From Amoebidium appalachense (Eukaryota; Protista; Ichthyosporea): DNA of 64,000 bases. Both the position numbers and the translations under genes were made by a program. Where the stretch lies: NCBI GenBank assembly GCA_963693365.1, contig CAVNZM010000007.1, positions 10,103,962 to 10,167,961 of the forward strand, in the 5' to 3' direction. Below, one piece after another: positions 13,174-45,772 of the stretch. The notes below the pieces were generated by a model. The model saw nothing but the letters and a program-made list of their open reading frames with translations. It was not told the DNA's origin and ran no database searches. The number at the start of each line of letters is the position of its first letter. Positions within the stretch are counted from its first letter, which is position 1.

Positions 13174-13804
13174 GGGGAAGGGGGGGAAGGGGGGGAATCA
13201 ACCCTTCTTGGGGCGGGGGGAGGAGGGGATGGGGTTGGGAGGGGGAAGGGGGGGTTGGGGCGGAAATGAGGCAGGAGTGGTTCTACGGAAGAGTGCGGCT
13301 ACAACTTGAGACCTCGACTTTGCTGAGTATATGTTGGTATGCTAGAACCTTGGGCTCCCAGTAGCAGACATGTGAGTAAACGTGCACCCCAGTCTGCCAC
13401 CCACTAGTCCTTTGTTCACGGTATCTCACATGTTCCCTACTGCCATTTCACATAATACACAGCCACACAGCCACCAAAACCTTCATGGTAGACTAAGTGG
13501 CTAGGTGCCAACAACCACTTGCACGTGTGCACACAGTACTCACCCAGGCCGACCGGGCCAACCTCCAAACAAAGTCTGCCTCCTTCCCATGTGTAGCAGC
13601 CAAAGACTGCAGCAGCCTCCTCTCCTCCCCAAACCTATTCTGCTCGTAGAGGCTATCTGCCTGCGCGTGCGCAGAGAGAGTGAAAACATTTTCAAGGGAA
13701 CATTGTCAAGCAAACAAAGTTGGGTGAGGCTGACACGGAGTCACAAACAAGATGCTGTCGCAGACTGCCAGCCACTCTCTTACCTCGCTGTATACGTCCG
13801 CCAT
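7681..13804 (-). CDS. RMDN1: Regulator of microtubule dynamics (RMDN1/FAM82B-like) TPR protein, ~8 exons, ~225 aa
   Basis: Exons spliced by hand with GT..AG sites: 13804-13784 (MADVYSE), 13660-13544 ([10 protein letters not shown]...[11 protein letters not shown]), ~12130-11960 (..[31 protein letters not shown]; acceptor uncertain), 10605-10519 ([29 protein letters not shown]), 10055-9974 ([27 protein letters not shown]), 9244-9185 ([20 protein letters not shown]), 8463-8354 ([22 protein letters not shown]..), 7749-7681 ([22 protein letters not shown]). Colinear with RMDN1 motifs as I recall them (WRLARA, AHKWYAI, GxWCY, STYExAL). Confidence 0.88.
9101..9174. other. Perfect 34-bp inverted repeat with 6-nt loop in an RMDN intron
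   Basis: GCACAAACAGGCACTTCCCCGACAAACACACACA-GATTTA-TGTGTGTGTTTGTCGGGGAAGTGCCTGTTTGTGC; the arms are exact reverse complements. Confidence 0.95.
11413..11742. mobile_element. hAT-type MITE (330 bp) in an RMDN intron
   Basis: TIRs CAGAGATGGAGCGG / CCGCACCATCTCTG (13/14). 8-bp TSD TGCATGCC at 11405-11412 and 11743-11750. Subterminal AGCCC/GGGCT repeats. An 8-bp TSD with CAG ends is typical of hAT. Confidence 0.85.
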
Positions 13805-15127
13805 GCTGAATCGCTTGTGTGCTTAAACGAATTGCTGGTATGTACTAGTCCACTAAGACCGTCTGCTATTGACCTTTGGTAAGTTTCGTGTTTGAACCTT
13901 GGCCCGGTTATTTTGTCACAAGGATTCTTTCCGGCAAACACGGCAAATAATGAAGACGGTCAATGCGGCTATGAGCCTTCCTGTTTCCGGTATTCTCAGC
14001 CTAAGTTAGCTGCCTAACTGAACATTAGTAAAACAACGAAGAGCTTGAGAGAGTGTTTTTGCCAGACCAGAAGTTACAAACTACACACTACGGTCACATC
14101 ATCAGACTCGGCGTTCTATGATGTTCACCGTTGGTACTGTTGGTGCCCTTTTTGGGGTCATACAGTGACTCATACTCAACATGATCGCATCTTTTTGGTT
14201 TTGGCTTGTCTTCTGATTGGGCGCCCCTCTTATGCATAATCAATCTGATTTATGAGTCATCAAGAAGTGTCACCAGCGGAATGCAAAAGGCAGAAATGAT
14301 TCCATTTAAACAGGAATTGTCCTACTCCCCATAAATGAATAGCAACAACAAAAAAGAAGTATCAAGTGCCTGCTATTTTCATATAGAAATTATATAGAGC
14401 TCAGTTTTAATGGACATAAATGTGTCGGAAAGACCGGCTTTTTATTTTATTCTAATTATCATCAGATTATAAAGTTTCATAACCGCCGGAAGTATTTTTC
14501 AAAGAATGTGCAAGAGGTTACTCTGATTGGTGTTTTGTTAGAAAGCCTGGTGATTGGTTCAAATGGTATCATCCAAAAGCGTTTTGGTTCGTAGCCATCG
14601 AACCAGCGCAGGGTTTGAATCAGAATTCTAAAGCCCTGTGCTCAAACTGACTTGCAACTTCTCACTGCCGCCTCGAGCTCAGCCTCAGCTGCCAGGTGCA
14701 GGTGGCACATGATCAAACAACTTCTTGTACAGCCGCTAGCTATAGGGCACGCTCCACGGAACCACGCGCCTGTTCTACACGCACTGTTCATCAGAAAGGT
14801 AAGGTATCTGGAGTGCAGCCTCTTATACAGTAGTAGCTACAGCTCCCCTCTCAGGCAGCTCGTAGTAAAGTTTTTCAAGGAGGTGAACGAAAAGCAGGGC
14901 AGCACTGATCGTCTTGTCGTGTATACTACATGTACTTAATAAGCTTACGAGAGTACTTACGTACGTACTTCCAGATCTAGAGGGCAAAGAAAGTCGACGT
15001 CAGAACGTGCCAGGCCTGCGCGTGTGTACAGCTAACCATGGCAATAATTCCTGTTACTTCGTTCTCCCCCCCCCCCCCCCCCCCCCCCCCCCCCACCGCC
15101 ACCGCGGCGCCAGGGCCTTGGCAAAAG

Positions 15128-15159
<32 letters not shown>

Positions 15160-15207
15160 CCCCCCCCCCCCCCCCCCTCTCTCCCACCCACCCTCCCTCC
15201 CTCCCTC

Positions 15208-15274
<67 letters not shown>

Positions 15275-15330
15275 GAGTCTCTCTCTCTGCTCTCTGTCTC
15301 TGTTTCTCGACTCTTTCTCTGCCTCTCTCG

Positions 15331-15387
<57 letters not shown>

Positions 15388-15409
15388 TGTTTGTGTGTGT
15401 GTGTCTGTT

Positions 15410-16117
15410 TGTTATTTTGTGTGGGTAAACGGAGAAGCAGAGAGCACAGATGGGTGTTATGTAAAACACAACACAAAGACACACGGGAAAAACACAACCG
15501 GAGAGGAGGAACGATTTCTGGAACCATAGGAAGTGAATACGACTGCTTGTGATTTATTTCAAGATGAGGTCCCTTTTATACTTGGGAATGTGAAACGATA
15601 AACCAATCAAAAGAATGAAAACTATGAGTGTAAAATATATCGAATAAAATGTCTGTCGACATTTAGAATATAAAACTCAATCCTCTAATGAAAGAAACTT
15701 CTAATAAAAGCACGGAAACATTTAATAAAATGAAACCACTTATGTAACTATTAATTCATAACATATATTTATACATGTTCTTATCATAACACGTCTAAAT
15801 ATAATTTTTCCTAATAGTTGAAGAACATAGCACAATGCTACGTCGTGGGAAAGGAATGAGAAAGGAATGTAAGTTACTATATTTGGGAAAATACAAACGA
15901 GATATGATTGGATGACATATATAGATTTTGACGCAAACGACAATACGTGTGCGCGAGCTAAGTATGTCGATACGTACACAGATCTAAGATGTCGTGTACA
16001 CGGAAACGGAAAAGAAAGAAAGAAATGAAGAAAGGAAAAGGAAACAAACTACAACAACTAATAAATAAATACCAAACTCAACTTCTAAGTCTTGCTGAGA
16101 ATTAAGTGAAGATGACA
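15410..16117 (-). repeat. Copia 3' LTR
   Basis: Direct repeat of 21790-22497, preceded on the minus strand by a polypurine tract. Confidence 0.95.
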
Positions 16118-16598
16118 TCCCCACTCAAGGGTTGGAAGTTGGGTTCTCGTGAAGTTTGTTGATGTGACTGTTGATGTTAAGACTTTCACACATGTAGAAG
16201 TAGGTGCCGTGAAGTCACAGTCAAGTTTCCCCACTCGAGAAGACAATGGAGAAGACTTGAAGGTGCAAGCCGGGGAAGAAAACCAAAACGGAAGAAGCAC
16301 ACAACGACGGTTGCCTCTGAAGACTCGGAAGATGACGGTAGCCAATGACGTGATATATAAATATATATAGAAGAAACAACTAGTGTATGTGTGACGTGTT
16401 GGTGGCTAATGATAAATACATTATATATATGGTGGTATATAAATAAACGACGGATGGTGGAGAAGAAATCCCCACTGAAGATGCACACACTGAAGATCGA
16501 TGAAGACAGCAGTAGACTTTCGTTGGGAGGTGTCTCTACACGGTGATGTGTAGACCACTGGCCAGGGCCCCAACCTACTTGAAGACCACTGTAGATGA

Positions 16599-16645
<47 letters not shown>

Positions 16646-16646
16646 C

Positions 16647-17992
16647 TTAGTCATGAAGACTGAGTGAATCACGGTGTTGCTCGTGGGAGGGCCCGGGCAG
16701 GGGCTTGGTGAAGATGTCAGCCACGTTGTCTTTGCTGGACACGTAGGTGACGACCACATCCCCACTCTTGATGTAGTCCTTCGTGTTGTGGTAACGGACT
16801 GCAATGTGTTTGGTCCGGTGCTTGATGCTGTTGGTGTGCAGGAGGGCAATGGTGGACTGGTTGTCACAGTAGACGGGGGTGGGGTCGGTCATCGGGTAGC
16901 CGAGTTCACGGAGGAGATCACGGTGCCAGATGACGTTTTGAACAGCAGCATTGATGGCCAGAAGCTCAGCCTCGGTGGTGGATGTTGCCGTGATGGACTG
17001 CAGCTTCGAATACCATGTGATGGGTATGCCCTTGAAGAAGATGACGTATCCGGTGGTTGAACGACGGGTGTTGGGGCAGTTGGCAAAGTCAGCATCAGAA
17101 TAACACTCCAGCAAGGGGGTGTTGTCGTCGGAAGCAGACTTGTCGTAGTGAAGGCCGAGGTTGGAAGTGCCGATGAGGTACCGAACTACACGGAGTAGAC
17201 ATTCCCATGCAAGTTTGGTGGGGTGGGCACTGAATCTACCGAGGTAGCCGATGGCAAGGAGGGCACGGACGGAGGAGGACATCACCACGGGGGAAGAGGT
17301 GTCACCGTAGTCAACACCGTAGACTTGAGTGAAGCCCTTTGCAACACCACGAGCTTTGATCTTGGTGTCACCGGCTGAGTTGAGGACTTTCTCAGTCACA
17401 ATCCACTTGAACTTGATGATGTTGGCACCAGGGGGGGGATCAACAATGGTGAAGACATCCTTGGTGATGAAGGCTTGGTACTCGGAGGTGAGGGCAGCTA
17501 TGACGGCATCACCGTTGGGACCGTTGCAAAGCTTTTGAATTCCCTTGGGGAGCTGGTCAATGTTGATGGTCGGTGCTACGATGCTGACCAGTGCCGTTGG
17601 AGTCTTGGTGAGACGTGTAGACCGACGAAGGTTGGGCTTGGGGGGGTCCTTGAGGGGGGTGGTGGCCGGGTAGGTGGTGGAGGCCGGGATAGGGGCATGG
17701 AAGCCAGGAATAGGACCGGTGGTGAGGGGGGCATCGGTGTCCACAGGGCTGCTCGTGGCCGAGTGGAAGGTGGGGGACCCAGGACGAACCGGAGTCATGT
17801 AGCCGGGTTGATGCACAGCAACGGGGGGGGCCGGCAGCAAGGGTTGTTGGCCAGTGGGGGGGGGGCTCGGGGGAGGCACGGGTTCAACCGGGGCTGGTTG
17901 GTTGTGCCAGGACGGTTGGGAGATAACCACAGACGGAGTTTCATCGTCGTCGTCGGAGGGGGGGTCCAATGTCGGCAGATCGGGTTTGGGGG
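16647..17992 (-). pseudogene. pol: Copia pol 3' part: Pro-rich linker, RT N-terminus fused in frame to RT C-terminus, RNase H
   Basis: KWIVTEK..KARGVAKGFTQVYGVDY..SPV..LLAI joins directly to GYLGRFSAHPT, with no D(V)xxAFL or YVDD motifs. RNase H motifs YSDADFA, RRSTTGY, STTEAE, YCDNQS, RTKHI, ADIFTKPL are present. Confidence 0.93.
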
Positions 17993-18076
17993 GAACGTGT
18001 TGGAAGATGGTATCGTTATCCAGTCCGATCGCATGAATCAGATCATGATTGGCTGGTGGCCTGCGAGATCTTAACC

Positions 18077-18149
18077 GATCTCGTAGCTCAGTTGGTAGAG
18101 CACTCGACCGGAGATAGAGGGGTCGCGGGTTCAAATCCCGTCGGGATCA
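18077..18149 (+). tRNA. tRNA-like gene, 73 nt, anticodon GGA, short variable loop (atypical; may be tRNA-derived rather than functional)
   Basis: Acceptor GATCTCG/CGGGATC; D arm GCTC-AGTTGGTA-GAGC; anticodon arm CTCGA-CCGGAGA-TAGAG (one mismatch, C33); variable GGGTC; T arm GCGGG-TTCAAAT-CCCGT; discriminator A. A and B boxes are intact and a TTTTT terminator follows at 18152-18156. Confidence 0.8.
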
Positions 18150-18534
18150 TCTTTTTCTCATCCTCTTCTCGCTGGGGTAAAAGCCAGCACGCCTTTACTG
18201 GCGTCATCACAACCATCGGCAGTGGTTAGGTTGTGATCTCAAGGCTAGCAAGATCGCTAGGTTGGAGTGCAGACTTACGCTCACTCCACAATATGTGTAT
18301 GTTAGCTTTACAATTGGTTCCGTGTACACAGACACACGCTGACACTCGATCACCACATGCACATCTGCATAGTTGAGGAATGTTGCCAATTGTGTTTTGA
18401 CTGCAAACGATTGGTTCACTGGTCCCAGAGATCTCTAAATGAAAGTAACCAATCCGATTAGCGCCTGGCATCCGGATTACATTCCAGACTGCTGCCCCAC
18501 GGGTATATAAACCACGGCTCTGCCAGGTGCAGAA

Positions 18535-18607
18535 ATGGAGTTCAGTCATGGAGTTCAGTCATGGAGTTCAGTCATGGAGTTCAGTCATGGAGTTCAGTCA
18601 TGGAGTT
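18535..18607 (+). repeat. 13-bp tandem repeat ATGGAGTTCAGTC x5.6 in the TRIM LTR (second copy 19185-19257)
   Basis: Seen directly; starts ~24 nt downstream of TATATAAA at 18504-18511. Confidence 0.95.
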
Positions 18608-19339
18608 AACACACTGAAAGCAGTAAAAAACGGGTCAGCGCCCAAGCGCGCCACGACGACCCTAGTCACAGCGGACTCTACTTCCAACAGGGTTATGGGC
18701 CCAGACACGACACCGCGGCCTCTAACTTCATTAGAGACTTTCGCTTCCACAAACTCCATCCGCAGCAGCCTGCGACATCAACGTCAAGTATTCCACTTCA
18801 TTGGCGGGGCACGCACCACAGTGGAATGCACACCCCGGTCTACCCTGCAAGCAGCCACACTCACTCTCTCTTCTCTAGTGGTGTGTACACTTCTCCAATT
18901 GGGTAGGGGTGTTGGAGTGCAGACTTACGCTCACTCCACAATATGTGTATGTTAGCTTTACAATTGGTTCCGTGTACACAGACACACGCTGACACTCGAT
19001 CACCACATGCACATCTGCATAGTTGAGGAATGTTGCCAATTGTGTTTTGACTGCAAACGATTGGTTCACTGGTCCCAGAGATCTCTAAATGAAAGTAACC
19101 AATCCGATTAGCGCCTGGCATCCGGATTACATTCCAGACTGCTGCCCCACGGGTATATAAACCACGGCTCTGCCAGGTGCAGAAATGGAGTTCAGTCATG
19201 GAGTTCAGTCATGGAGTTCAGTCATGGAGTTCAGTCATGGAGTTCAGTCATGGAGTTAACACACTGAAAGCAGTAAAAAACGGGTCAGCGCCCAAGCGCG
19301 CCACGACGACCCTAGTCACAGCGGACTCTACTTCCAACA

Positions 19340-21713
19340 GAACGGAGACCTGATTGGTGCTGCCCGTGAATTTCGACTCGTCGAAGATCACATCACGGCA
19401 GATCTTGATTTGGTTGCTGGCAAGGTCGAGGATCTTGTGTGCCTTGGAGGGTAGGTCCCAGCCGACGTAGGTGCCGACTCTGACGGTTGATGCCAGCTTG
19501 TTCCTCTTTGACCGGGGAACATGGACATAGGCAGGGGAGCCGAACACGTGGAGCTGGGAGACGTCGGGTTTGAAGCCGTGGAAGGCCTCGAAGGGAGTGT
19601 TGCCGTTGGCAGCAGATGACGGTGTGACGTTGATGATGTAGCTTGTATGCTTGAGAGCAGCAACCCACAACTTGGGAGAGAGAGGTTGGTCCTTGTCGGC
19701 ATGGAGGAAGCAACGGACTGTCTCTTGCAGTTCTCTCATCTTCCGTTCAACAACACCATTGTGTTGTGGTGTGTCGACGGGGGCAAACTCCATGATGATG
19801 CCTTTCTGCTTGCAGTAGGCCTCGGTGTCCTTGGAGGTGAACTCAGAGCCGGAGTCAAACCGAAGATGGGTGACGATCTCAGGTGTCTGACGTTCGATGG
19901 TTTCAACGAGAGACTGAATGTGGCTGAGGGTTTCACCACGGTTGTAAAGGGGGAACACGGTGGTGTAACCGGTGGCATCACAAACACACACCAGAGCAAC
20001 CTTGTAGCCTCCGTAGGAAGCACAGGGAGCTTCGAAGAAGTCCAGGTGCCACTTAGCACCGGGAATGGTGAACTTGGAACGGGTGCCGGGAAAGGGGGCC
20101 TTGGTGGTCTTGCCAGACATGCAGCCGAAGCAGTCACTGTTGTCGGGTGACTTGAGGGAGGGGGGCATGCCGATGACAAGCTCATCCTTGGCCATCCTGG
20201 TGACGGTGGAGAGGGCACGGTGGCCGAGACGGTTGTGCCAAAGGGTGAGGTCGTCGGGTGGGTGAGTCCTTGCTGTGTAGGCTTGGACCCCCGGGTGTTT
20301 AGGAGTCTCAATCACATAGTCAGTGATGTAGTAGAGACCGTCGAGGGGGGTGAGATCTGTAATAATGTCACCATTACGGCTGTAGAGGAACGACGGGTGG
20401 TTGTCTGTATCGTCACAATGACCTAGGAGGCCGGCAGCTGATGCCATGGAGGGAGACACGAGGAAAGACGGTGCCTCGGGTACGTAGTAAGCATTGATGC
20501 TGCACGGTGTTGGGTGGCCGTTGTAGTGCAGTGTCATGTTGATGATGCCACGTTGTTTGGCATTGACTGTGCCGAGGCCGTGAATGGGGGTGGGAGGACA
20601 CGGGGTAAGGGAGGAGAAATACTCCTTGATGGGGCAGATGTGTGCATTACAAGCACTGTCCCAGACGGGGTCGTTACTGTCAGGTGTGCCGGTGGAGGAG
20701 ATGAGTGCAAATTTCACACTCTTGTCACCTTTCTCCTGCTTGGCACGACGAGCAACTGTGCAGCCAGGCTCCGGGCATGCTGTGATGTGGTGGGGCTCAT
20801 GGCAGTAGGAACACTTCACACTGTTGGTGTTGTGTTGTCGGTTACGGTTGTCCCTGTTACCACGGTGGTAAGGGGAAGTTGAACGGGGGCCGGGTGACTT
20901 GGAGGGAGGACGAGGATCACGGGAACGGGACGGGGAACGGTGAGGTGTATGCTCACGTCGAGGAATACGGTTACGGAGGTCACCGGGGGGAAGCACTCTG
21001 CTCTGGAGTGCACGGAGGGGACGGGTGTTGACGGTTGCACCTGTGCCTGCGTCGATGAGGCCGGCACGGATTTCAGCTCCTCGGATGTCACTGATGAGCA
21101 TGTTGAAGGACGGGTAGGCCTTGTTGTTCATCCAGTAGTCGGAGCAGAGACGTTCAATGTCGGGGCAGACCAGGGCTGTGTTCTTCCGGATGTGGAGGAA
21201 GAACTTACGTACGACATCCTTGTGCTGGACGGGTTCGTCGAGGCAGGCAAGTGTCGTAGCCAGACGTTGGAGACGGGTGAGGTATGCTGTGACGTTGGGG
21301 TAGTCTCGTAGTTCAAGCTCCTCGAAGGTGACTTGAATCTGGGTGACTCGGGCCTCCTTCCCTGCTACATACGCCATACGTAGGTTGTGGAAGACTTCAC
21401 CACCGTGGACACCGTCTTGCATCCGGCCGGAGTCGTAGAGCTCGGTCGGGTGGACGGACTGGTTGAGGATCTGGTCGAGGACGTCGGAAGCTTTCTTGTA
21501 GGAGTCCTTGGTGGTGTAGCCTAGCCACTGGTTGGCTTCAGCGCCGTCAACCCACTGTGGCCTCTTGATAGCGTCAACGAATTTCTCGGCAATGGTGGTT
21601 CTAATGAACCGGTGAATGAGTGGCTCCCACTCGAAATAATTAAGACGTTTCTCGTCTCGTTTCTCGGACGGATTCCATATTGGAAGGTTGATATACGACG
21701 GTTTGTCAGTCAT
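19340..21713 (-). CDS. gag-pol: Copia Gag-protease-integrase part of the polyprotein (interrupted at 19339 by the nested element)
   Basis: Zn knuckle CSYCHEPHHITAC; protease WDSACNAHIC; HHCC region LWHNRLGH..CFGC; integrase HLDFF/RFDSGSEF/PQHNGVVERKMR; C-terminal GTYVGW..RDVIFDE. Confidence 0.95.
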
Positions 21714-21789
21714 GATTGAAGCAGTAAGACTGAGAGATTTTCGCGGTTGTAGCGAGATTGTGTGTTAGCGTGCAAAGGGGCCGTAAACC

Positions 21790-22497
21790 TGTTATTTTGT
21801 GTGGGTAAACGGAGAAGCAGAGAGCACAGATGGGTGTTATGTAAAACACAACACAAAGACACACGGGAAAAACACAACCGGAGAGGAGGAACGATTTCTG
21901 GAACCATAGGAAGTGAATACGACTGCTTGTGATTTATTTCAAGATGAGGTCCCTTTTATACTTGGGAATGTGAAACGATAAACCAATCAAAAGAATGAAA
22001 ACTATGAGTGTAAAATATATCGAATAAAATGTCTGTCGACATTTAGAATATAAAACTCAATCCTCTAATGAAAGAAACTTCTAATAAAAGCACGGAAACA
22101 TTTAATAAAATGAAACCACTTATGTAACTATTAATTCATAACATATATTTATACATGTTCTTATCATAACACGTCTAAATATAATTTTTCCTAATAGTTG
22201 AAGAACATAGCACAATGCTACGTCGTGGGAAAGGAATGAGAAAGGAATGTAAGTTACTATATTTGGGAAAATACAAACGAGATATGATTGGATGACATAT
22301 ATAGATTTTGACGCAAACGACAATACGTGTGCGCGAGCTAAGTATGTCGATACGTACACAGATCTAAGATGTCGTGTACACGGAAACGGAAAAGAAAGAA
22401 AGAAATGAAGAAAGGAAAAGGAAACAAACTACAACAACTAATAAATAAATACCAAACTCAACTTCTAAGTCTTGCTGAGAATTAAGTGAAGATGACA
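21790..22497 (-). repeat. Copia 5' LTR
   Basis: Direct repeat of 15410-16117, followed on the minus strand by PBS-like GGTTTACGGCCCC. Confidence 0.95.
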
Positions 22498-22861: not shown

Positions 22862-22864
<3 letters not shown>

Positions 22865-23107
22865 CACACAAAGTCTGCCTCGAGCTCCTTCCCATGTGTA
22901 GCAGCCAAAGACTGCAGCAGCGTCCTCTCCTCCCCAAACCTATTCTGCTCGTAGAGGCTATCTGCCTGCGCGTCCGCAGAGAGTGAAAACATATTCAAGG
23001 GAACAATGTCAAGCAAACAAAGGTGGGTGAGGCTGACACGGAGTCACAAACAAGATGATATCGCAGACTGCCAGCCACTCTCTTACCTCGCTGTATACGT
23101 CCGCCAT
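22862..23107 (-). pseudogene. Duplicated RMDN1 exon 1 and truncated exon 2
   Basis: 23107-23087 encodes MADVYSE|GT. 22965-22862 encodes [35 protein letters not shown] (6-bp insertion), then runs into (GA)n with no donor. Confidence 0.85.
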
Positions 23108-24369
23108 GCTGAATCGCTTGTGTGTTTAAACGAATTGCTGGTGTGTACTACAATGGTCCACTAAGACCGTCTGCTATTGACCTTTGGTAAGCCTTTCGTG
23201 TTTGAACTTTGGCCCGGTTATTTTGTCACAATGATTCTTTCCGGCAAACACGGCATATAATGAAGACGGTCAATGCGGCTATGAGCCTTCCGGTTTCCGG
23301 TATTCTCAGCCTAAGTTAGCTGCCTAACTGAACTTTAGTAAAACAACGAAGAGCTTGAGAGAGTGTTTTTGCCAGACCAGAAGTTACAAACTACACACTA
23401 CTGTCACATCACCAGACTCGGCGTGGCCATGGCCACGCCGTTGTTCAAAAGTTTACTATGTTCACTGTTGGTGCCCATTTTGTGGTCATACTCATCATGA
23501 TCGCATCTTTTTGGTCTTGGCTTGTCTTCTGATTGGGCGCCCCTCTTATGCATAATCAATCTGACTTATGAGCCATCAAGAAGTGTCACCAGCGGAATGC
23601 AAAAGGCAGAAATGATTCCATTTAAACAGAAATTGTCCTACTCCCCATAAATGCATAGCAACAACAAAAAAGAAGTATGAAGTGCCTGCTATTTTCATAT
23701 AGACCTTATATAGAGCTCAGTTTTAGTGAACATAAATGTGTCGGAAAGACCGGCTTTTTATTTTATTCTAATTATCATCAGATTATAAAGTTTCATAACC
23801 GCCGGAAGTATTTTTCAAAGAATGTGCGAGAGTTACTCTGATTGGTTTTTTGTTAGAAAGCCTGGTGATTGGTTCAAATGGTATCATCCAATCCAAAAGC
23901 GTTTTGGACTTTTGGTTCGTATCGAACAAGCACAGGGTTTGAATCAGAATTCTAAGCCCTGTGCTCAAACTGTGCAACTCAGTCTCACTGCCGCCTCGAG
24001 CTCAGCCTCAGCTGCAGGTGGCACATGACCATACAACTTCTTGTACAGCCGCTAGCTATAGGGCACGCTCCACGGGACCACGCGCCTGTTCTACACGCAC
24101 TGTTCATCAGAAAGGTAAGGTATCTGGAGTGCAGCCTCTTATACAGTCGTAGCTACAGCTCCCCTCTCAGGCAGCACGTAGTAAAGTTTTTCAAGGAGGT
24201 GAACGAAAAGCAGGGCAGCACTGATCGTCTTGTCGTGTATACTACATGTGCTTACGAGAGTACTTACGTACGTACATCCAGATCTAGAGGGCAAAGAAAG
24301 TCGACGTCAGAACGTGCCAGGCCTGCGCGTGTGTACAGCTAACCATGGCAATAATTCCACTAGTACTTC

Positions 24370-24407
<38 letters not shown>

Positions 24408-24455
24408 ACCACCACCACCACCACCACCGCCGCGGCGCCAGGGCCTTGGCAAAAG

Positions 24456-24528
<73 letters not shown>

Positions 24529-24560
24529 TCTCTGTCTCTGTTTCTCGACTCTTTCTCTGC

Positions 24561-24600
<40 letters not shown>

Positions 24601-24717
24601 TTGTGTGTGTGTGTGTCTGTTTGTGTGTGTGTGTGTATGTGTGTCACACGGTGTGTATGTGTGTGTGTCTGTGTGTGTGTGTGTGTGTCTCACTCACGCC
24701 CTCTCTCTCCCTCATGT

Positions 24718-27079: not shown

Positions 27080-27529
27080 GGTGTGTGGGTGTGTGTGTGT
27101 TGTGTGCGTGTGTGTGTGAGTGTGTGTGTGTGTGCACGCGCGCGCGTGTGTGTGTCGTGTGTCTTGTGTGGTGGAGAGGGAGGAGGGGGGAGGGGGGGGA
27201 GGGGGCGCCCGGGGGGAGGGGGGGGGGGGGGGGGCTTATTGGTCCAGATATATAATATAGCAAAAGAAGTACACACTTATGCCTCATCACTCAAAGTCAA
27301 ACACACGAACCCTCAAAACCTGCAGACATACCGTGACGCCATTTATGTGCACACGCACACACACACTCATGCGAATGTGCGTTTTGTAGACACGAACTGT
27401 GACACATGAACACGTGCACACGCGCACATACATGCATACAAACTTGCCGGCTCCACACAACAAGTACACACACATGCACCATCTTGTGTTTGCACTTATG
27501 CTAACAATCTTTTTAATTCCCCGCAACAG

Positions 27530-29558
27530 TGCTTTGCAGCCAGACAAACATTGTCTCCCTCCATTGCGACCATTCCAGACGGCAGCTGTAGAGGCGATTT
27601 CGTCTTCACCAGCTAGAGATGTGATGCTCATCGCTCGGACTGGTTCGGGTAAGAGCATGGTATTCATAGAAGCATTAAGGCGCGCAAAGCAGACGGATAA
27701 CTTGGCCTTTGCTGTTATGGTTTGTCCACTGAATTCACTATTGTTGGATCATCAGCTTGCTGTGTCCAAGTATGGCCACACATACAGACTGTTGGCTGGG
27801 GACAACGTAGGTGACACCGAAATCGATGAAGCCAAGAGGGCACTCAAACGTGGAGAAGTCGATTTTATTCTAACAACTCATGAGCGACTCGATAACACGT
27901 CGTACGGAAAGGGTAGCAAGAGTGGCGCCGTCATAAGCATCTTTTCGCAACACGGCAACAAACATTGTGCTCTGGTTGTGTTAGATGAAATACAGCAAGC
28001 AACGGAGTGGAAGGATTTCAGGCCGGCCATCAATTATGTGGCCCAATCCATTGGCATCTGGGCTCCACTTGCACCTATTTTGTTGCTAACAGGCTCTCTT
28101 CCAAAAGGCGATGTATCGCTTTTTGTGAAGGTTTATTTCGGCCGCAGCAAAGACCCGTTGATAATCACCATTTCATTGGATCGACCAAACGTATATTTTG
28201 GCATTCTCGCAACCAATCCAAGTGATCCTGTGGACCCCGTTTCCTATTTCGACATATTGTACCTGCGTATGCGCGGTGTTTTGCGGTCGGGTGGGACGGT
28301 TTTGGTTTATGTGCCAACCAGGGCGGATACTTTGAGGGTACGGCGTAGAGCAGAGCAAGTTCTAACTGAACAGGAAGGATTGCCGCTGGAAACGGTTAAG
28401 GTACAGGTCTTATCTGTGCACAGTATCAACTCACAGAAACACAAGGAAACCATCCTGAGTAAATTCAAGGATGGGTCGGCCCGGGTTGTTGTTGCCACTG
28501 TGTGTTTTGGGCTAGGGGTTGATTACCCTTCGGTTGGGTTTGTTGGCTGCCTTTTTGTTCCGGAAACGGCGAGCCTTCTCCTACAGATGTTCGGTCGGGC
28601 AGGACGAGATCAAGGAGTGGCAGAGGCATGGGTGGTCACTAAAACGAACAGTTTGAGTAAGCGCAGCAAGGTGGAGAAGGAATATCAGGAGATTCTTACG
28701 AAATGTGTGGGAACCCTCGAGCAAGCAGCGAAGGATGCGTCTGTTCTGTTGGGCCCCCAGCAACAACACTTGTGTGTGCGTAAGGACCTTTTTGGCTCGC
28801 TTCTCGCTTCTCCTGAAACCGTTTCTGCCGACACATTCATAAATAAGATAGCTCAGGTAACTGTGGGTGACACTGGTGTGGATCCGGAGCGGCTGCCAAA
28901 CCCGGCCTGTTGCTCCGTGTGCAGTCTATTTGATCTGCCCAGTTTTCGATGTCAGCAGGTTCTAATAAAAAAACCAATCGTCCCATACTCTTGGTTACCT
29001 GAGTCAACAACACTGCCTTCCCCCTTGCGTGTCTATCCTTCACAGGCCGCCACGTCTGACGACATTTTTGCAAGCATACCAATAGTTCCTATTCAGACAG
29101 TGCAGGAACCCACGGCACGTAGATATTTGGAACGGAATGACTTCAAAGACCTTTTGGTGTACATGGAGGATGTATTCGAGAAAGGCTGCCAGGATCTTGC
29201 CCGCAGGCGAAAAGACTACTCACCCGATTTTTTTGTCAAAAAGAGTTCCCATGTACATATGCTTGCACATGCTGATAAATATCTCTCGGGAGACATGATT
29301 CTGGTGTGTGGTGACAAGGAGTTCAAGTGTGTATTAGAAGATGCGTTCAAGAGTCTTGTGTTTCCAGAAATGCTAACGAGCTCTAATCCTATAGCCTGCT
29401 CATGTGCATCAGAGACAAAGTGTCGAACAGCCAGATGTACATGCAAGAAAATTGGGGATAACTGTTCAGAAGTTTGTGATTGCAAAGTGTCAGCGTGCGA
29501 AAATCGTAAACTCACTATAAGAATTCTAGTAGGTTCAATAAATAATGAAACTTTATAA
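27530..29558 (+). CDS. RecQ-family SF2 helicase with RQC Zn motif and C-terminal CXC (tesmin/CRC-like) domain; 5' exon(s) not resolved
   Basis: Motifs: I ARTGSGKS, Ia CPLNSL, II LDEIQ, aromatic loop WKDFRP, III LTGS, LDRPNV, V VATVCFGLGVD, VI QMFGRAGRD; CVR..CCSVC; C-terminal CSCASETKCRTARCTCKKIGDNCSEVCDCKVSACEN. One long uninterrupted frame after a CAG acceptor at ~27529. Confidence 0.92.
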
Positions 29559-43413: not shown

Positions 43414-44460
43414 ATAAAGAGAGGGACAAGCAGAAATACCTGGATTTGGCCAAGTTAAGGTTTCGATTATAAAGTACCAAGTGTGGGCAAATAGAGGATG
43501 CAAAAGAAGAAAAGTAGCAAATGCATATCATACGGCTCACCTGTTGCCACAATTCTCACACCTGCATGCCTGGGTGCATGCCCGCTTGTTCTTTGCGCAT
43601 ATGCAACGCTCATGCCCATCGTATGCCTGCACTTTTCCCCCGCCGTTCTTAAAACCACAAAAAAAACGTGTTCTATCCTTACTGTTTCTATTACAGCTGC
43701 AGCCCTTGGCGGGCAACCCACCGAACGTGTCAGTTGTGTTAGCGTTAGACGCCAACTCCGTCGAGTTTTCCGTGTCAACTGAGTGTGATGTCTGTGTTTG
43801 GTTGTTGTCCGAGATTTTGTTCGCATGCGACAAGCGAGGTATTACCACTGAGTAATGATCTGCTGCACCGTTAAGTGATACGGGTATGGCAATGTTGGGT
43901 TCGATGACGGTGGGTGGAGTGACCGCAACTACACCGTGATTGGCAATCGTGCTAAAAATGGTTATTGGTATGCGGAGTGCGTTGGCTAAGCCCAGCACCA
44001 TCGCGTCACCGGCTGCAGAAGCAAAATGGGCGCGCCGAGGACAGCGGAAATCATCAGCTACGTATGCGAGGGTCACCCTTGAAAGGAATCCTTGGTATTC
44101 TGCTAGATTTCGCCGCCATTCGTTTACCATTAGTTCGCGTAGCCGTCCAATCGCCTCTATAGGCTCCATATTAGCTGTAAACCCCAATGTGTTGAGGTGT
44201 TCACGGGTAGCTACATGACCGCTTTGTAGATACTGATTGATATAATGCCACACCGAATGAAACAAACAGTTGCCGTCAGCGGGTGTTTCCATAAGCTCCA
44301 TTCTCCAGGCACCCAGAATTTGAAGAAGGCGTTGTTGCTGGACCTCAGGTGGCCCGGATATGTCCCTGTGTTGCACATCACAAGGAAGAATAAGCAAAGA
44401 CAAGAAGTGGGAGGGTGACGTAGGGCAGTGGTGGTGGGGTGGGTGACAGTGGGGTGGGAG

Positions 44461-44495
<35 letters not shown>

Positions 44496-45772
44496 AAGAG
44501 AGAGAAAGACAGATTATGGGGAAGGCGGAAAGGCCGAGGAGCAGAACAAGGGAAACCTTGGCGTGTGTGTGTGTGTGCGTGTGTGGGTGGGTTGGGGTTG
44601 GGGGGGGGGGGTTGGGGGGGGCATTAGATTATTAACAATTCTATAAGTGAATAAGAGTGTGTGCGCTCGTGGCTGCGAGGGAGGGTGCATGCGTGCATGC
44701 ATGGGTGCGTTCGTGTGTGCAGGTGTGTGAAAGGGGAGGGGTGTGTGTGTGGGGGGGGGAGGGGGTTAGGCACTCTGAAGGGGGCCGGGCAGGTGTAAGG
44801 GAGTACTGATGAAGGAGGGGCTATGAACGGGGGGGGGGGGGGGGGGGGGGGTAGGGATGCAGATGCTTTCAAATAGGTGGAAGAGAAGCAGGGAGCTTCC
44901 AAAAAGGTAGGATGGAAGATATAGGTATACTATTAGAGAATAATGAGAATTAGGGGAGGTAAGAGGTAATGGAGGACTTGAAAAGGAGGGACGAATGGGC
45001 AGAGGCCCTCCTGAGGGAGGAGAGGGGGGGGGGGGAGGGGAACAGGACAGGCATAATAAGTGGGCCTGGGGAGGCAGGTTGTCTGACAAAAAACTGGTGT
45101 CACTTGGGTTGGAAGGAGAGATGGATTGATACGTGCAAGGAAGTAAGGAGGTGGAGCAGTTGGGAGGAAGAATTGTGGGAAGGAGGAGAGGGGGAGGGGG
45201 ATGCAGAAAAGGGGGCGGGGGGGGGGGGGGAGGGGGGGGGGGGGAGGGGAAAGGGGGATGGGGGAAAGGGGAGGAGGCCCTGCAGGGAAAGGGGGGGAGA
45301 GGCGAGAGGGAGGAGCGGGGGGCGTTGGAGGGGAAGGGGGGGGGGGGGGGGGGGGGGGGGGGGTTCGGCAGGAAGCACCTGGCAAGCTGTATGTCTGCTG
45401 CCACGGCCTCGTCAAAGAACACTAGAGTGAAGAGCAGATGATCCGGGTCCTGTGCTGCTAAAGCAAACCCTTCGGAGCTGTGCACAGACCCAATCAGCTT
45501 GCGCATCGCACGCCGGGCGTTAAGCTTGCGGCCTGCTAGGCGCACACATGTTGACACGTTGAATGAACCGGGGCTCTCGTCACTTGACCCCTCATCGTCA
45601 TCGTCAGAGCCATCACTGTCGAAAGACCCAACCTCCATACCACACTCAGGCAAGGAACGGTTGCCATTATTGCCATAAGCTGCAGAGTGAACACAAAGAC
45701 AGGGTGAGAGAATAGCTGGTCAATGGTTGCCAGGTCTATAAAGAACCCACTCCCAACCGAGATCCCCCATCC

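Follow-up and report, generated by a model that had tools for sequence, protein, structure and literature searches.

A non-coding LTR element with a tRNA-like gene at one end only and its possible hybrid origin

The gag-pol frame of a Copia element in Amoebidium appalachense is interrupted by a non-coding LTR element that carries a tRNA-like gene near its left end and no copy of that gene at its right end. The locus raises the question of how a tRNA-like gene came to lie in one end only of an LTR element and what the gene may do there. All coordinates below refer to the window, the 64-kb stretch of DNA that was analysed. Contigs from 4 of the 24 runs listed (X1, X7, X10 and X11) were compared with it, and the depth of these contigs is not to be read as copy number.

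Results

A single recent insertion with a TRIM core

The whole element occupies positions 17998-19339 (1342 bp) of the forward strand, and a single pair of GAACG target-site duplications (TSDs), located at 17993-17997 on the left and at 19340-19344 on the right, encloses all of it. A match between two such 5-mers has a chance of about 0.001 when computed at local composition, and the 9-bp inverted repeat between the 17998 end and the 19339 end has a chance of about 3e-6. Half or more of the sequence words are contained in 20 of the 24 runs listed; no RNA run figures among these, which carries no information on expression. The empty insertion site is present as a joint in three of the four runs compared (X1, X10 and X11). 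The element plus one TSD amounts to 1347 bp, a multiple of three, and by this arithmetic the pol frames of the host Copia stay in register once the insertion is removed. Taken together, the TSD pair, the presence of the empty site and a host frame that stays in register establish that we are dealing with a real and very recent integration.

Two copies of a short LTR of 430 bp were delimited by repeat comparison. The 3' LTR (18910-19339, +) begins directly behind the polypurine tract with a TG end of its own, has a 7-bp inverted repeat and lacks the tRNA-like gene. The 5' copy (18261-18689, +) is devoid of the first T, which is replaced by G, and is otherwise exactly identical to 18911-19339 (no differences in 429 bp), leaving little time for later rearrangement. 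At 18511/19161 and 18517/19167 both copies also show identical letters that are in the minority, from which it follows that they stem from one copying round. An earlier note on this DNA had placed CCAAT and TATA motifs and a 13-bp array downstream of the tRNA, and we found them there: CCAAT at 18449 and TATA at 18504 in the 5' short LTR, and the array with 5.6 copies in each short LTR (18535-18607 and 19185-19257). The array lies directly behind the TATA box and differs in length among copies, as seen from a joint 18540>18591 in X1. The same run contains head-to-tail joints of short LTRs (18689/18910 and 19340/18909, with one letter between), which represent either tandem LTRs or the junctions of two-LTR circles.

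Between the LTRs lies a non-coding interior of 220 bp (18690-18909, +), which starts with the primer-binding site (18690-18704, +) and ends with the polypurine tract (18901-18909, +). In reverse complement the primer-binding site reads as a CAT-loop arm: it can pair with the initiator tRNA-Met along the anticodon arm, the arrangement of half-tRNA priming. Two Helenus interiors begin with the same 12 letters. Altogether, the non-coding Copia-type LTR element of the earlier note, with TSD, 9-bp terminal inverted repeat, primer-binding site, polypurine tract and 220-bp interior, was recovered in every part.

The contigs revealed further interiors. Loose ends occur behind 18702 (X1, X7 and X11) and before 18887 (X7 and X11), positions at which other interiors depart from the present one and rejoin it, and a second set is found behind 18730 (X10) and before 18732 (X1 and X10), while contigs of 61 nt bridge 18730/18732 in X7 and X11. 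The longer interiors, represented by at least 255 loose letters in X7 and X11, have the LTR end, primer-binding site and polypurine tract in common with the core. Interiors of greater length are thus bounded by the short LTR as well, and the one of 220 bp is likely the product of a deletion with its joint at 18730/18732. In X7 and X11 contigs run unbroken through the purine tract into the short LTR, and in the multi-copy form the 430-bp LTR sits directly behind the purine tract. The core at 18261-19339 thus displays the canonical features of a TRIM (a miniature retrotransposon with terminal repeats), namely a short non-coding interior, two LTRs, a primer-binding site, a polypurine tract and several copies. 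Its helper was probably a Copia element that shares the short LTR and the primer.

A left-only extension with other neighbours on both sides

The remaining 263 bp of the element (17998-18260, +) have no copy at the 3' end. The tRNA-like gene starts 79 bp inside this extension. The earlier note had assigned the gene to the 5' LTR; its cloverleaf, its A and B boxes and the T5 run behind it are real, and the gene is located in the left-only part, outside the repeated LTR.

The extension was directly observed next to other sequences on either side. On the right, a 400-nt contig of X11 starts at 17998 and fits the window with its first 263 letters only, and an X7 contig departs from the window sequence exactly behind 18260. 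The X11 depth of 1.66 in the bin 18240-18323 equals the contribution of the 21 bases up to 18260 alone, so no X11 contig crosses the junction. No contig across 18260/18261 was found in X7 or X11, both shallow runs in which rare forms would be missed, and no listed contig spans the whole stretch across the junction. X1 and X10 are deep runs, in which a further 154 loose ends and 7471 pieces exist beyond those listed and the listing of joints is incomplete. Among the joints listed for the four runs, none leads from the purine tract to 17998. On the left, three other flanks all meet the same start at 17998: two from X1, namely a joint 17846>17998 and an unrelated loose end, and one from X11, a loose end in which 30 of 30 letters are those of the 3' untranslated part of the host Copia (16379-16350). 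Counting the window itself, three of the four left flanks of the tRNA-bearing end belong to copies of the host Copia family; this may point to a target preference, with the bias that only flanks matching the window can be recognised.

The start of the extension is fixed and LTR-like and precedes the tRNA by 79 bp, which renders a second LTR likely and a SINE unlikely. We conclude that the extension is likely the first part of an LTR of 400 bp or more that belongs to a second, tRNA-bearing family, a conclusion drawn from contigs and flanks. The 400-nt contig and the several flanks, which stop short of an interior and a far end, suggest an LTR. The donor family looks young and multi-copy. Scans for exact patterns retrieved no loci from metagenome contigs and none from viral contigs.

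At the right end of the extension, a run of hairpins (18158-18260, +) follows the T5 run, the last of them reaching precisely to the junction. These 103 bases had a z score of -3.26 and were matched in stability by one of 200 shuffles; they are one of five pieces tested, the others yielding z scores of -0.7 to -1.5. A 6-bp direct repeat marks the ends of the extension (17999-18004 and 18261-18266), and no microhomology is present at the junction 18260/18261. The point of the switch is within one base of the start of the short LTR, the TG end of which is left incomplete.

The tRNA-like gene

The 73-nt sequence at 18077-18149 (+) is the only tRNA gene that ARAGORN reported in the 64-kb window. 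It was recognised by Rfam family RF00005 with 57.4 bits (E 5e-11), and when positions 17000-20500 were compared with Rfam at E values up to 1, no family except tRNA and no ribozyme was obtained. Its stems are paired at 7/7, 4/4, 4/5 and 5/5 positions, and the predicted fold is a cloverleaf (z -1.63, with 14 of 200 shuffles as stable). An A box at about 18084-18095 and a B box at about 18128-18138 are intact and fit the consensus of these boxes. A run of five T residues at 18152-18156 (+) is a putative Pol III terminator.

With its full cloverleaf, the sequence is nonetheless likely a pseudo-tRNA. It has a GGA anticodon, a variable loop of 5 nt, C33, A73 and one mismatch in the anticodon stem; the short variable loop, C33 and A73 are at odds with a serine tRNA under the isotype rules. 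In eukaryotes, serine tRNAs do not normally have G34 (PMC8266599). A functional tRNA-Ser gene was rejected, as anticodon, variable arm and discriminator disagree (G34 and C33, the 5-nt loop and A73, respectively). A family of such sequences would inflate the tRNA counts of the genome through false tRNA-Ser(GGA) calls. Self-priming was likewise dismissed, there being no complement of at least 10 nt at the primer-binding site of either the element or the host Copia.

What the gene does may be judged from Helenus, a group of TRIMs whose dominant fungal type is tRNA-bearing, half-iMet-primed, mobilised by Copia and bounded by 5-bp TSDs, and was described in rust fungi (Kojima 2024, PMC10886601). 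By eye, all 26 complete Helenus LTR consensus sequences in part 1 of the 11-part supplement have a T4 run within about 15 nt behind the tRNA-like part (PMC10886601). The immediate terminator, put forward in the earlier note as distinctive, is therefore shared with these 26 LTRs. In the home family of the extension, the tRNA-like gene would, by analogy with the proposal for Helenus, probably provide an internal promoter for Pol III, followed by a terminator that is leaky, and would serve neither in decoding nor as a primer. A more tentative alternative, put forward in the earlier note, is that the gene gives rise to a discrete short RNA or, when bound by TFIIIC, forms a barrier to silencing, in either case without driving the transcript of the element. 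The T5 run immediately behind the gene, which exceeds the T4 run of the 26 Helenus LTRs in supplement part 1 by one T, would suit such a role, as would the complete cloverleaf and the position of the gene far from the 3' end of the LTR, unlike in those 26 sequences. However, a T run at this place is the rule in the Helenus LTRs of that supplement part, the author of which reads the tRNA part as a promoter (a proposal there too), and the strong fold behind the T run gives the impression of a stretch that is read in single-stranded form.

The host Copia and its surroundings

The element resides in a Copia copy of opposite orientation (15410-22497, -) that is delimited by identical LTRs of 708 bp and a 5-bp TSD of its own. 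The insertion interrupts its single gag-pol frame, separating a gag-protease-integrase portion (21713-19345, -) from a part for reverse transcriptase and RNase H (17990-16650, -). Pfam families for protease, gag-pre-integrase, integrase and SH3 were detected upstream of the insertion and part of RVT_2 downstream of it. The reverse transcriptase (16650-17990, -) is internally deleted and covers profile positions 2-71 of 244 of RVT_2 only. Judged by its sequence, with identical LTRs, an open frame and a deleted reverse transcriptase, the host is a young defective copy. Relatives of its pol are 24-48% identical (37 matches), and the Atlas placed it in generic Copia clusters.

The primer-binding site of the host (21776-21789, -) differs from that of the TRIM at the three anticodon-facing bases. 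Its letters match half a tRNA-Tyr(GUA) if one G:U pair is allowed, a mode of priming listed for a rust-fungus Copia. It is unlikely that the host Copia served as helper, since it has no LTR sequence in common with the element, a different primer-binding site and a deleted reverse transcriptase.

A repeat of 1.9 kb (87.6% alike) flanks the host at 13563-15390 and 22862-24688. Further along the window there are a long uninterrupted RecQ-like helicase frame (27390-29555, +) and a frame for an OTU-like protease (43540-44628, -), each with distant relatives only; both are possibly parts of DNA transposons. A three-exon gene with GT-AG introns (40772-39011, -) is identical to P0079, which was its sole match, and contains no Pfam family.

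Discussion

Origin of the one-sided element

We hold with moderate confidence that the 1342-bp non-coding element in the Copia gene is a hybrid, in which a TRIM with 430-bp LTRs and the first 263 bp of a tRNA-bearing LTR were joined before integration. A joint made by integrase would not give an incomplete TG end. The one TSD pair around the whole, the position of the switch point, the incomplete TG and the identical LTRs thus favour a join that preceded integration. Template-switch hybrids with intact TSDs have been published, as sections of PMC1950507 and PMC13570524 report. What counts against a hybrid is the 6-bp direct repeat, which equally permits derivation of the short LTR from a long LTR by deletion, together with the lack of microhomology at the junction, the low depth of X7 and X11 and the incomplete joint listing for X1 and X10.

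The hybrid may have formed as follows. The TRIM RNA would have been made from the Pol II-type promoter in the 5' short LTR. Its packaging and copying would have been due to an autonomous Copia with the same LTR ends and primer, and not to the host Copia. If both families were present in one particle, a plus strand starting at the left end of the tRNA-bearing LTR may have stalled at the hairpin that ends at 18260 and then switched to the first base available next to the purine tract of the TRIM. Alternatively, two cDNA ends may have been joined with the loss of one base. The TG...CA ends are related in both families and integrase would accept the hybrid product, so that a Copia integrase could have inserted the joined parts as one piece. 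In the present copy the tRNA-like gene would be a dead end. Both daughter LTRs take their U3 from the parental 3' LTR (PMC10886601 and, in the passages concerned, PMC1950507); as the 3' LTR is free of the tRNA here, this copy would not transmit it.

Among the competing accounts of the junction, the one that survives best, although we consider it unlikely, assumes a subfamily with a long, tRNA-bearing LTR of 692 bp at both ends, i.e., a true Helenus-like TRIM, the short 3' LTR of which arose by plus-strand transfer between co-packaged forms or by deletion between the 6-bp repeats. The repeat at the ends of the extension would explain the missing T, and the terminal inverted repeat is better in the long form (9 versus 7 bp). 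On the other hand, contigs of X7 and X11 never cross 18260/18261 and the extension continues into other sequence, and a joint from the purine tract to 17998 does not figure among the joints listed for the four runs, the latter being a weak point in view of the incomplete listing.

A nested origin appears distinctly less probable still. Here, the tRNA-bearing LTR would have come first and made the TSD, the TRIM would have entered it at 18260, and the remainder would have been lost through a deletion whose endpoints lay in LTR ends that resemble each other. Nesting is common at this locus, where the element itself sits within a Copia, and the ends of both families are alike. This order of events requires, however, that the terminal T was lost and that the deletion was exact to the base, both after a very recent insertion, given the absence of differences between the LTRs, and no inner duplication remains.

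Insertion of an independent tRNA-derived SINE at the tip of the TRIM 5' LTR is highly improbable. The extension does occur with unrelated flanks, and this is the origin proposed for Helenus (PMC10886601); yet 79 bp of LTR-like sequence with an LTR-type start, which mirrors the right end of the element over 9 bp, precede the tRNA, this start is common to all flanks seen, and neither a tail nor an inner duplication is present. The earlier note had named two observations that would speak for a SINE, copies with the 430-bp LTR only and the tRNA segment with unrelated flanks; in the contigs, a multi-copy form has the 430-bp LTR directly behind the purine tract and the tRNA segment has other flanks on both sides, and the fixed LTR-like start makes a SINE unlikely nonetheless. 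An assembly error that joined two repeats at 18260/18261 is equally far-fetched, as the matching 5-bp TSD and the register kept by the host frame are consistent with a single real insertion, despite the lack of a listed contig across the stretch.

Comparison with related elements

The hybrid that we favour has counterparts in several known systems. The earlier note had regarded a tRNA-only, half-iMet-primed element as an unreported type; this type is already published as the dominant fungal Helenus type (PMC10886601). With Helenus (TRIMp3), the element shares its non-coding nature, two LTRs, primer-binding site and polypurine tract, a tRNA-like sequence with conserved A and B boxes and, as in the fungal Copia-linked type, a 5-bp TSD combined with an anticodon-loop primer-binding site. 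For Helenus, Pol III transcription has been proposed and not validated in that work (PMC10886601). In contrast to Helenus, where the tRNA is present in both LTRs and hence inherited, it is found here on the left only; the present copy, lacking the tRNA in its 3' LTR, therefore falls outside Helenus. Further differences concern the repeated LTR, which here comprises 430 bp with CCAAT and TATA motifs whereas the longest Helenus LTR has 323 bp, the size of the element (1342 bp versus 311-1263 bp in Helenus), the location of the tRNA, which in its home LTR is close to the start instead of the end, and the T5 run in place of the T4 of the LTRs in supplement part 1, all of these compared by description.

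The core at 18261-19339 corresponds to the canonical TRIMs or SMARTs (TRIMp2) as characterised in sections of PMC13570524. For sugar beet, the same sections report TRIMs that are chimeric, their LTRs having come from a second family, and template switching; unlike in these, the donated piece here is a partial LTR that includes a tRNA-like gene and makes up the end that was integrated. Among Triticeae Copia elements, complex insertions that arose by template switch resemble our case in that two parents were fused before integration, with a single flanking TSD as diagnostic feature; however, in the cases treated in the passages of PMC1950507 the joint lies in homologous R regions and three LTRs are present, whereas here unlike LTRs were joined without homology. 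Like the element studied here, the Cassandra TRIM bears in its LTR a gene for a small RNA that has a promoter and a terminator for Pol III, but according to the pertinent part of PMC7215508 this gene is 5S and not tRNA, resides in both LTRs, and priming is from a tRNA 3' end. According to the citations in PMC10886601, Drosophila copia and yeast Ty5 also have a primer-binding site complementary to the iMet anticodon arm and, by that account, are autonomous and without a tRNA-like gene. No left-only tRNA/TRIM hybrid and no Helenus beyond Kojima's list were encountered in the literature covered, which included parts 1 and 10 of the 11 Helenus supplement parts and neither Repbase nor Dfam.

Implications

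The kind of element is thus already published, and the find opens no new class; what we describe is an unusual one-sided hybrid of a known kind. A range extension for tRNA-bearing LTRs is possible. We raise only with reserve the wider interpretation that a tRNA-derived Pol III promoter module has been caught moving between unrelated LTR families by a template switch of reverse transcriptase, a SINE-free route to TRIMp3, with the donor being a family of tRNA-bearing LTRs that is active and has a new layout (T5, a folded tail and a tRNA close to where the LTR starts) in a eukaryotic lineage outside the Helenus list. If the hybrid is true, the element would be a dated and testable example of a small-RNA promoter grafted onto an LTR without a SINE, the insertion of which is the origin now assumed for Helenus and Cassandra. 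As the donor family looks young and multi-copy, it may be used to test whether the tRNA parts of such LTRs drive Pol III transcription.
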